From Octopus vulgaris (lineage: Eukaryota), in assembly GCA_951406725.2 (NCBI GenBank), contig OX597826.1, forward strand, positions 26,784,001-26,848,000: a stretch of DNA of 64,000 nucleotides, in the 5' to 3' direction. The notes below the pieces were generated by a model, which saw only the letters and a list, made by a program, of their open reading frames with translations, was not told the DNA's origin and ran no database searches. This document shows positions 6,770 to 55,689 of the stretch, in pieces (position 1 is the stretch's first letter; every line of letters begins with the position of its first letter). The position numbers and the translations under genes were made by a program.

Positions 6770-8650
6770 ATTTCAACTTTTGAAACGAGGCCAGTAAATT
6801 CGGGGCAGGGGGAAAGTCGATTACATCGATCTCAGCATTGAACTGGTACTTGTTTTATCAAGCCGAAAGGATGAAAGGCAAAGTCGACCTGGGTGGAATT
6901 TGAGCTAACAACGTAAAGACGGGCGAAATGCATTTTGCCCGGCGTTCTCACGATTCTGACAGCCCACCGCCTTCGGACGGTGTAATAATACTCTTTTCTA
7001 CTGTAGGCACAAGGCCCGAAATTTTTAGGGCGGGGTGGGGGCAAGTCGATTATATTGACCCCAGTACGCAACTGGTACTTAATTTACCGACCCCGAAAGG
7101 ATAAAATGCAAAGTCGACCTCGGCGGAATTGGGAACTCAGACGAAATACCTATTTCTTTACTGCCCACAAGTGGCTAAACACAGAGGGGACAAACGAGGA
7201 CAGACAAACGGATTAAGTCGATTACATCGACCCCAGTGCGTAACTGGTGCTTATTTAATCGACCTCGAAAGGATGAAAGGCAAAGTCGACCTCGGCGGAA
7301 TTTGAACTCAGAACGTAGCGGCAGACGTAGCATTTCGCCGGCGTGCTAACGTTTCTGCTCACTCGCTGCCATACAGACGGAGTAATATTGCAATTCTTGC
7401 CTAAAAAGAGTTCTTCACTATAATAAAAAAGAAGCAAAGAAAGAAAATGGCACAGCAAGTGCAATGGTGAAGCATTTGCAGATTTTATTGAATATTAAAC
7501 AGCTTTTGACACAGGTGTTCAAACCTTGTTTCAGCAGGTGTTGAAAGAAATGGGACTTTATTAAGTTCTTATTGAATTATTAAAATCTCATTTTAGGGCG
7601 TCTTGCTGGCAGAGTCGTTAGCAAATGCTTAATGGCATTACGTCAGGTTTTGCGGTGAGGAAATGTTTTTAAGGAGAAAAAGTTAGTCGATTTCATCGAC
7701 CCCCACAGCGTAACTGGGACTTATTTAATCAATACTGAAAGGGTGAAAGGCAGAAACGACTATGGCACAATTTCAATTTATAACATAAGAGCGGGCGAAT
7801 TGTTGCTAAGCATTTTGACTGGCGTGACAGCGATTCTATCAGCTCACCACCTTCTCTAGAAGCTAAAAATAATGGTTTCGAATTTTGGCAAAAGACCAGT
7901 AGTTTTCGTAGAGGAGGACAGTCGATTACATCGACCCCAGTGCTCAACGGGTATTTATTTTAGAGGTTACGAAAGGGTAAGAGGCAAAGTCGACCTCGGG
8001 GTCATTTGAACTCGGAACGTAAAGACGAACGGAATACCTATTTCTTTACTACCCACAAGGGGCTAAACACAGAGAGGACAAACAAGGACAGACAATCGGA
8101 TTAAGTCGATTATATCGACACCAGTGCGTAACTGGTACTTATTTAATCGACCCCGAAAGGATGAAAGGCAAAGTCGACCTCGGCGGAATTTGAACTCAGA
8201 ACGTAGCGGCAGACGAAATACCGCTACGCATTTCGCCAGGCGCGCTAACGTTTCTTTTCTACTCTAGCCACAAGGCCCGAAATTTTTAGGAGAGGGCGCA
8301 AGTCAATTAGATCGACCTCAGGACGCAACTGGTACATAATTTATCGACTTCGAAATGATGAAAGGCAAAGTCAACCTCGGCGGAATTTGAACTCAGAACG
8401 TTAAGACGGACGGAATACCTATTTCTTTACTATCCACAAGGGGTCAAACACAGAGAGGACAAACAAGGACAGACAAACGGATTAAGTCGATTACATCAAC
8501 CTCAGTGCGTAACTGGTACTTTATTTATCGACTCCGAAAAGACGAAAGGCAAAGTCGACCACTGCGGAATTTGAACTCAGAACGTAGCGGCAGACGAAAT
8601 ACCACTAGGCGTTTCGCCCGGCGCGCTAACATTTCTGCTAGCTCGCCGCG
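6770..8650 (-). mobile_element. Tandem array of SINE family B monomers and dimers
   Basis: About eight occurrences of aaaggatgaaaggcaaagtcgacctcggcggaatttgaactc; linker gaaatacctatttctttact.cccacaag recurs at about 7142, 8031 and 8412. Confidence 0.85.
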
Positions 8651-11067: not shown

Positions 11068-11314
11068 TATATATATATACATATATATATATACAGTATA
11101 TATATAAATTTAAATAATAAGGGTGAAAAATAGAATATTAATTTGGTTAATATCAATTTAAAACCAGTGGCCTAGCATAATGAAAAATTTGAAGATTCAG
11201 AATATTTATATTACATACATATAAGGTGGATGACCACTAAGTGGATATCCATTATGCTAGAAGCAGAAGCCCTATGGTCTGACCACGAAGAAAATATCCT
11301 TTCTCATTCCGTCT

Positions 11315-18161: not shown

Positions 18162-18214
<53 letters not shown>

Positions 18215-18222
<8 letters not shown>

Positions 18223-18860
18223 TTAATAAGGGTGAGAGAATTAGATACTAATTTAATAGTATATATAGTGGCCTAGTGCTACGAGAAACCTGGATTATTA
18301 TAATATTTTATAACATATTATAATATTTTCACAAAATAAATATAAGAGAGTGGTCACTATATTATCACACGGACAGGGCAAATAAAAAATAACAAAAATA
18401 CAGATTATTTTGGGACAATTGTTTCGCTATAATGAATTAAATGTAATATTACTTACAATAATCCATTTGTAGCTCGTCAGCCAAGACTATGGATGAAATC
18501 CACTCAATCACACGCCAGATTTTACCATAACGATAAATACGCGTGTGGTTCAATTGATTACATCCGACGTTATAATTCAAATGCCCCAACCAACAGCGCG
18601 CCAAACTCTCACGGAAAACAAATACAGCATTTAGAAATAAATGCAGCATAATTATAATTAATTAATAAGGGTGAGAGAATTAGATACTAATTTAATAGTA
18701 TATTTATTCCACACCAAGTGGCCTAGTGCTACGAGAAACCTGGATTATTATAATATTTTATAACATATTATAATATTTTCACAAAATAAATATAAGAGAG
18801 TGGTCACTATATTAAAATAATCTGTATTTTTGTTATTTTTTATTTGCCCTGTCCGTGTGA
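18215..18860 (-). mobile_element. Retrozyme-like/Penelope-derived unit: about 1.45 copies of a 439-nt monomer with a short terminal inversion
   Basis: Direct repeat at 18215 and 18654; inverted 47-nt block at 18814-18860; hammerhead in between; adjoins (TA)n. Confidence 0.75.
18410..18484 (-). ncRNA. Type I hammerhead ribozyme, fully canonical core
   Basis: Reverse complement: ttgg-CTGACGA-gcta...tagc-GAAA-caattg-TC-ccaa; G10.1-C11.1 pair, GUC triplet, palindromic stem III. Confidence 0.85.
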
Positions 18861-18888
18861 GCTAACAGTCGTACTGGCTTTCATGGGA

Positions 18889-18935
<47 letters not shown>

Positions 18936-54941: not shown

Positions 54942-55004
<63 letters not shown>

Positions 55005-55005
55005 T

Positions 55006-55689
55006 AAATCACAATAAGGGTGAAAAAAATTGAATATTAATTAATAACATCAATTTAAAACACCAAGTGGCCTAGCGTAAAAAAACTGTGATACAGTAAA
55101 AATTGTTAATGCAAGTAATAAGAGAGAGACCACATGTGGTCACTCTAACGCTAGAAATAGATCCGCAAAGGGAATCAACCACTAAAGAATTGTTCTCAAG
55201 CATTAATTCAACACGCCAAGAATGTAAGCGGGCAGGACAAATGAAAAATAACGAAAAAATAGATTAACGAAAAAAATAGATTGTTTCATCGTTAATAGAT
55301 TGTGTAATTTTACTTACATAATCATTTTCGAATCCTCAGTAGAGTATATCAAAAATATAATTTGCTGAACCGAACGCCAAAATCCATACGAAGCCGAGCA
55401 AAGGCGAACGGCACAGTCGATTATATTTGCAGTTATGTTCAAATATCCTCATTTTTGGCGCGTTGAAAATACTGAATGTAAATACTACCCCAGTAATTTA
55501 CTGCCGGTTTGAGAAGATATTAATTTATAATTAAAATCACAATAAGGGTGAAAAAATTGAATATTAATTAATATCATCAATTTAAAACACAAAATTAATG
55601 CTTGAGAACAATTCTTTAGTGGTTGATTCCCTTTGCGGATCTATTTCTAGCATTAGAGTGACCACATGTGGTCTCTCTCTTATTACTTG

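Follow-up and report, generated by a model that had tools for sequence, protein, structure and literature searches.

Animal non-LTR retrozymes have been described by Cervera and de la Pena (2020, PMC7229834) and by Li, Clavereau and Pollet (2026, bioRxiv 10.64898/2026.07.22.740005), and in the sections of both papers that were consulted their mobilisation by Penelope-like elements (PLEs) is proposed from co-occurrence, shared hammerheads and pLTR phylogeny. PLEs themselves occur as partial tandems with an optional tail at one end, an adjacent inverted and 5'-truncated copy, and (TA)n targets, according to the excerpts available of PMC8557442 and PMC3846280. Furthermore, as far as the accessible text of Frangieh et al. 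(2024, PMC11167929) goes, the Poseidon protein of Anolis (PAc) cuts and extends both strands in vitro, begins reverse transcription at two internal sites, one on either side of the tail, and has no need of hammerhead cleavage; uncut RNA is its main substrate, no RNA ends were seen at the hammerhead site, and the target is AT-rich.

The window analysed here, a stretch of 64,000 nucleotides of Octopus vulgaris DNA, contains a genuine retrozyme insertion at 18214-18889 (Table 1). Its body is rearranged, its signature is of Penelope type, and the whole is a damaged copy of a young repeat that occurs in abundance. It measures 676 bp, or about 1.3 family monomers rather than the 1.45 given by the initial annotation, and consists of monomer sequence only, with no open reading frame for reverse transcriptase (RT) plus GIY-YIG as in autonomous PLEs. 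Positions within the repeat are given as q coordinates, where q1 is the first base after the predicted ribozyme cut and the ruler is one real genomic monomer from locus L033.

Table 1. Features of the insertion and its flanks, in window positions.
Feature	Positions	Strand	Remarks
(TA)28 microsatellite, left target	18162..18217	no strand	last bases overlap the q291 terminus
Direct arm, 600 nt	18214..18813	minus	q131-533, q1-49, jump to q130/131, on to the fixed q291 terminus
Tail q161-291, terminal copy, with 11-nt deletion	18214..18333	minus	lies between the two fixed 3' termini of the family
Junction of the internal deletion, q49 to q130/131, with loss of 80 nt	18364..18365	minus	GTGA microhomology
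Type I hammerhead motif	18410..18484	minus	motif positions and RNAfold fold; cleavage activity predicted
Tail q161-291, internal copy	18653..18783	minus	
Head-to-head junction, q131 joined to q3	18813..18814		overlap 0, added bases 0
Inverted arm, 76 nt, q3-q78	18814..18889	plus	short of the usual q160 terminus of the family
(TCTA)n microsatellite, right flank	18890..18935		

The direct arm passes through one intact predicted cleavage site. It had been read as carrying a 439-nt monomer, which has to be replaced by the family value of 533 nt: the apparent spacing of 439/450 results mainly from the 80-nt internal deletion (q50-129), together with deletions of 11, 2 and 1 nt, and 533 less all four gives 439. 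A separate 439-nt subfamily was considered and rejected, as the 440-nt unit had no further full-length match among the 40 of 726 candidates scored. The inverted arm is 100% identical to the family reference, and 18814-18860 is the perfect 47-nt inverse of 18411-18365. Its beginning at the third base after the cut, noted before, is correct, while its supposed end at 18860 is not: the arm reaches 18889, and the absence of q50-129 from the internal copy is what hid the part beyond 18860. Since the inverted arm has q50-78, which the direct arm is without, it was not copied from the deleted unit. Its outer end (q78) is shorter than all 65 visible ones of the family, of which the shortest reaches q105. 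The reading of the insert as a longer-than-unit retrotransposed copy of a hammerhead-bearing RNA, with its inner junction where a cDNA ended, is upheld. As a separate observation, q130/131 is both the position of the internal jump (18363-18365) and the 5' end of the direct arm (18813); L038 and L058 likewise end at q129, and this could be an RT pause site.

An assembly artefact would be another source of the inversion. The locus does sit between microsatellites, and no contig from other runs bridging 18813/18814 was present among the 27 pieces listed (2814 lie beyond these), which is no evidence either way. Against this, the junction is clean and did not recur in any of the 39 candidates scored (39/39), two-armed loci number 66 of 98 and almost all differ in their junction, and a contig set from another sample has three other head-to-head joints of the family. 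An artefact is therefore most improbable.

The minus-strand ribozyme had been called fully canonical, a description that holds for its core nucleotides and predicted cut (between 18414 and 18413) and is limited to the core. Stem I comprises 4 bp (18484-18481 paired with 18413-18410), followed by the core CUGACGA at 18480-18474, a long stem II at 18473-18426, GAAAC at 18425-18421 (GAA at 18425-18423), a helix III of 2 bp with a palindromic loop (18422-18415), and GUC at 18416-18414 with C17 at 18414; stems I and II were both recovered by RNAfold. Hammerheads with a short helix III and a palindromic loop are described as poor as monomers and good as dimers in the parts of PMC4209133 and PMC7229834 consulted. 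The Rfam hammerhead families gave no match at the gathering score and none at E<=10, probably because of the long stem II. Variation in the catalytic core across 66 loci is restricted almost wholly to N7 (C470A/G, 20 locus counts), with T467C in 2, and this conservation fits selection for ribozyme activity at some stage of the cycle. The T467C change, at U4 of the core, is found in some monomers of the L084 and L116 arrays, mixed with intact units in the same arm. At least one intact predicted cleavage site is present in 70 of 98 loci.

The family to which the insert belongs is a young non-LTR retrozyme, putatively non-coding, dispersed and recently mobile in a microsatellite-rich host genome of 2.8 Gb. 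The unit search returned 726 candidates, of which 40 were scored; among those 40, many lie in arrays of 533-nt period, and copies 99-100% identical occur on many contigs. Exact search for q291-(TA)n termini found 811 in the genome, so that the family has at least 811 termini. In total 205 full monomers of 514-538 nt were extracted, each cut at the motif, and many are identical. The unit is AT-rich, and arrays, which reach 11 or more units, pass straight into (TA)n without an LTR. Elsewhere in the window, 54950-55620 (minus strand) and 11087-11175 hold an older sister repeat, about 72-84% similar, with a decayed hammerhead-like core; its equivalent of the q291 terminus also runs into (TA)n.

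Two sets of loci were assembled. Set 1 takes the first 100 of the 811 terminus matches by position (contigs C1-C2), less L125 and L127, whose junction is identical to that of L070, and comprises 98 loci with 164 arms and 163 observed 5' ends, as L152 runs off the retrieved stretch. Nine irregular loci in it were entered by hand. The outer end of L112 lies outside the stretch and was set by hand to q161, so a count of 56/66 corresponds to 55/65 observed. Two-armed loci are undercounted because arms under about 18 nt were missed, and L148 and L159 seem to have one. Set 2 contains 31 loci including this copy, is skewed to long young arrays and was not picked by termini; L042 was excluded from it for being too heavily rearranged, and four loci are counted under set 1 instead. 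The cut-site breakpoint test rests on the 98 unbiased loci (C1-C2) and the 31 others. A search with the tail segment of another subfamily listed 40 matches, mostly known loci, which stand outside the counts, and searches for fold-back junctions are selected samples kept outside the statistics. The distant loci L070, L125 and L127 share one common junction (q37/q522), two of them with identical arm lengths, and here the two-armed insertion was itself duplicated or re-mobilised.

In set 1, whose loci were picked by their q291 terminus, inverted arms have their outer end at q154-163 in 55 of 65 visible cases and at q291 in none. The 56 arms with an end at q154-163 all continue into (TA)n; one of them belongs to a neighbouring insertion in L067. 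In set 2, one terminus of each type is present in 16 of 18 two-armed loci and two alike in none; the two that depart from this are this copy and L057, and in the latter BLAST extends the arm to q161. One-armed loci have one or the other fixed site as their terminus. Fixed sites at about q160 and about q291, one per arm and in (TA)n, are the known Penelope tail/inverted-pLTR signature.

In L1 twin priming, the second strand primes at a random internal site just upstream of the stop of the first cDNA, and the outer end of the inverted piece adjoins the 5' end of the direct piece. The initial annotation had invoked twin priming for the flipped 5' segment. This copy alone would suit it: the insert is collinear with one RNA, inverted q3-78 being followed, after a 52-nt gap, by q131 onward, and its q78 end is not at the fixed site of the family. 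Elsewhere the outer end stays near q160 wherever the direct arm stops, and the two ends adjoin within 20 nt in only 4 of 66 loci (4.6 expected by chance in permutation) and 7 of 84 (7.5). For the family, L1-type twin priming is refuted, and for this copy it is a very remote prospect.

Two features suggest that both arms derive from one template or source. Locus-private variants are common to both arms for 17 of 78 variants, in 15 of 33 testable loci, and arm lengths correlate (rho 0.46, p=8e-5). Junctions overlap by 0-4 nt in 66 of 84. The other 61 of the 78 variants are not shared, which counts against two arms copied from one RNA, though later mutation would give the same result, and the shared ones could reflect gene conversion after insertion. 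The q291-arms that end on the first pass (3 at q124-154, 6 at q155-185 and 0 at q186-216) are too few to tell if two enzymes share one RNA.

The 5' ends of the two arms lie within 15 nt of each other in 16 of 66 loci against 4.1 expected (p=5e-5), and such near-symmetric junctions would fit either two enzymes stopping at one RNA position or fold-back. Under fold-back, or self-priming, a cDNA primed at one fixed site would use a short inverted repeat to fold back or to switch template onto itself, after which the second target end would capture the copied strand at the other fixed site. It explains the near-symmetric class at least as well as the Penelope mechanism does, and predicts shared private variants too. 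Several of these junctions lie on short palindromes, fold-backs at or near the q79 palindrome recur in L065, L234, L236 and L239, and palindromes at inverted junctions are interpreted as self-priming in the part of PMC3846280 consulted; three of the 16 are the irregular loci L082, L111 and L160. The remaining 50 of 66 junctions are asymmetric, including that of this copy (q131/q3), and arm lengths there still correlate (rho 0.46). Moreover, the inverted arm of this copy has the q50-78 segment absent from its direct arm, and in L065 the variant C453T is out of register between the full monomers of the arms. Fold-back is thus an unlikely source of this insert.

The closeness of the junction to the cut site had been taken as genomic evidence of cleavage in vivo, that is, of a reverse-transcribed RNA with a ribozyme-made 5' end. 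Comparison of paralogue breakpoints, as the initial annotation itself proposed, does not support this reading. The 163 5' ends from 98 loci are scattered across the entire monomer, largely as foreseen there for the case that its reading was wrong, and only a small excess at q1 is left. With expected counts derived from a stopping rate fitted by arm length, ends exactly at q1 number 2 of 163 (L106 and L149) against 0.34 (p=0.046, uncorrected), ends at q1-5 number 4 of 163 against 1.70 (p=0.094, ratio CI 0.6-6.0), and wider windows give 5 against 3.42 (q1-10) and 10 against 6.92 (q1-20). A similar excess lies just upstream of the cut, at q524-533 (6 against 3.32), and cut RNA cannot template these ends; by eye, the arms of L107, L126 and L143 extend 2-3 nt beyond the cut even allowing for microhomology. 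When set 2 is added without this copy, the signal weakens, with 4 of 210 ends at q1-5 against 2.16 expected (p=0.17). A post hoc window of q527-q5 holds 10 ends against 4.04 (p=0.009), but an excess of this size is equalled somewhere in 58% of null scans, and the q46-57 window is stronger. Read-through is the rule, as 213 of 224 arrivals at q10 go past q524, and stops at q1-5 beyond expectation make up at most about 4% of arrivals. Because breakpoints are spread and read-through is common, the 2-nt spacing in this copy is no evidence of cleavage. Here one cDNA most likely stopped at q3 by chance or through stalling at the ribozyme fold, and a small real excess of ends at q1 may exist in the family.

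A cleaved template could nonetheless act within the same two-arm mechanism, with a minority of templates being cut linear multimers and the inverted arm stopping at q3 by run-off at a ribozyme-made 5' end. The geometry fits, given that the inner junction is a cDNA end, and the two unbiased ends exactly at q1 point the same way. So does L149, where the arms end at q1 and q4 and their lengths are compatible with a single RNA, and core variation is almost confined to N7, as for an active ribozyme. Junction-selected searches gave further ends at q1 (L212), q3 (L223) and q4 (L229), but these were picked by query and are not an unbiased count. The low significance of the excess at q1-5 and its weakening with set 2, the matching enrichment upstream of the cut and the post hoc nature of the q527-q5 window all weigh against this reading, as does the direct arm of this copy, which passes an uncut site. 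Run-off at a cleaved end is a possible but doubtful account of the q3 junction.

Considering the RNA template, L033 and L152 carry arrays of 11 identical units each, as would result either from a homogeneous tandem transcript or from a single circle that was reverse-transcribed in a rolling manner. Arrays in L112, L116, L065, L041 and L074 contain recurring, non-identical monomers and therefore need a multimeric template or template switching, so that rolling copy of a single monomer circle as the sole route is excluded for these five. The whole monomer is covered by contigs of four runs from four studies, the RNA nature of these runs being a guess. Such contigs do not reveal RNA ends, and their listings gave no pile-up of ends. 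X2 contains one loop, 563 nt long, in which the youngest variant alone is represented, while the genome is a mixture of subfamilies. Looped 563-nt contigs (X2 and X17) were considered as proof of circles and set aside, as circle and tandem fit equally. The repeat also appears in runs X16-X20, labelled as four other organisms, and X17 has, at low depth, a looped 563-nt contig that is slightly diverged; the presence of the repeat in these runs may reflect related species, low copy number or carry-over.

Clusters of A>G changes only are a mark of A-to-I hyper-editing of double-stranded sense RNA. Loose single-contig ends over the ribozyme in X1 and X11 carry, by eye, 9 and 10 changes per 30 letters, all A>G. 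They lie in the region of L033:2269-2312 and both alter the GAAA of the core, while the X1 piece spans the cut site intact; no comparable A>G cluster was found in the 205 genomic monomers. These ends suggest hyper-editing that would destroy the GAAA of the ribozyme core.

A possible source of the enzyme is present in the same genome. A young autonomous Neptune-like PLE with a unit of about 4.7 kb occurs at loci L193-L208 (for example L204:2500-7270), and its 781-aa frame contains RT (RVT_1, E=1.2e-6, just below its cut-off) along with a GIY-YIG domain at the C-terminus, above its cut-off, and with the CxxxxCxxC linker of Neptune/Nematis type, a motif described in the portion of PMC8557442 consulted. 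Its direct ends, all running into (TA)n, occupy two sites separated by about 40 nt (10 copies at one and 3 at the other, the anchor being found in 13 of 16), and both of its two-armed copies (2/2) have one end of each kind. Comparison of the monomer with this family gave no significant DNA similarity, the best local score being 36 against a shuffled maximum of 44, and the element is for this reason a candidate driver only. Similarly, no match of the monomer to a pLTR was found in 46 GIY-YIG loci or one family's pLTR, with 150 of 6136 candidates scored. By eye, the PLE pLTR (L204, about 7150-7210) contains a minimal hammerhead with the U3-A8 core variant known from the part of PMC4209133 consulted; RNAfold on this segment did not return that fold. 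Further, unrelated motifs were observed in the flanks, namely a minimal PLE-type hammerhead with identical palindromic helix III at L196 (about 1158) and L205 (about 7539), on the opposite strand of the oriented copies, and a second long-stem-II type I hammerhead motif in the flank of L201 (about 8069).

Taken together, the insert is probably a deleted copy of a 533-nt hammerhead repeat in TA microsatellites, written in trans by a Penelope-like RT-endonuclease. The enzyme would cut both strands of the (TA)n target, and each cut end would prime reverse transcription on a shared RNA longer than one unit, the first starting at about q291 and the second at about q160. The template would be an uncut tandem transcript or a religated circle; both cDNAs would pass intact ribozyme sites, stop at largely arbitrary positions and become joined at their ends through 0-4 nt of microhomology. 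The ribozyme is predicted to act upstream of integration, resolving multimers to monomers for circularisation. The short q78 end and the q49-q130 jump of this copy may be template jumps or later deletions. Besides the variant and symmetry data given above, the Penelope mechanism has against it the lack of DNA similarity to the one autonomous family, a tail of 131 nt where 30-40 nt is published for PLEs, the q78 end of this copy in (TCTA)n and the weak q1 excess. An extended model, which we regard as tentative and rather improbable as a whole, would have a Penelope enzyme dimer use two fixed sites on a single retrozyme RNA to prime both ends of the (TA)n break, with a few percent of templates ribozyme-cut and both cDNAs on these running off one shared 5' end (candidates being L149 and perhaps this copy), while host A-to-I hyper-editing of inverted-repeat transcripts would rewrite GAAA and switch the ribozyme off.

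Compared with animal non-LTR retrozymes, as portrayed in the consulted parts of the literature, the family shares the low-GC tandem repeat, a single type I hammerhead in each unit, arrays from dimers up to long multimers and dispersal, as well as the short helix III with a palindromic loop and the proposed mobilisation by PLEs. It differs in its 533-nt monomer, against a published 150-450 nt that is a descriptive range and not a strict criterion, in its very long stem II, and in having (TA)n in place of a long target duplication. Inverted arms, fixed termini and breakpoint maps are not described in the sections seen of PMC7229834 and bioRxiv 10.64898/2026.07.22.740005, and our literature search found no breakpoint map for retrozymes; the supplements (the PMC7229834 integration model and the preprint tables) were outside its scope and may bear on novelty. 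In contrast to the retrozyme literature, circles and cleavage are here predictions from sequence alone, and no pLTR homology was found. What the family adds is hundreds of near-identical young insertions that carry a Penelope integration signature on a retrozyme.

The resemblance to L1 twin priming is confined to an inverted 5' segment and microhomology at the junction, whereas the second priming site is fixed and not beside the truncation, and poly(A) and target duplication are both missing. Endonuclease PLEs of Neptune/Nematis type are closer, sharing partial tandems, 5' truncation, an inverted 5'-truncated copy and a tail at one end (PMC8557442, PMC3846280), along with palindromes at some junctions, (TA)n targets and a hammerhead in the repeat (PMC8557442, PMC3846280, PMC4209133). 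Relative to what the excerpts of these papers give, the octopus repeat is putatively without an ORF, its tail is 131 nt rather than 30-40, and its hammerhead is full-size rather than minimal.

The closest biochemical counterpart is PAc, to the extent covered by the accessible text of PMC11167929. In both systems two internal start sites bound the tail, the target is AT-rich and uncut RNA is the main substrate, and both target strands are, or in the octopus family would be, cut and extended. No difference in start site between the strands was seen in vitro, whereas the genomic arms here use strictly one site each, a rule that constrains the PLE integration step. The integrated templates of the octopus family were overwhelmingly uncut or religated, in agreement with the in vitro PLE result (PMC11167929, in the part consulted).
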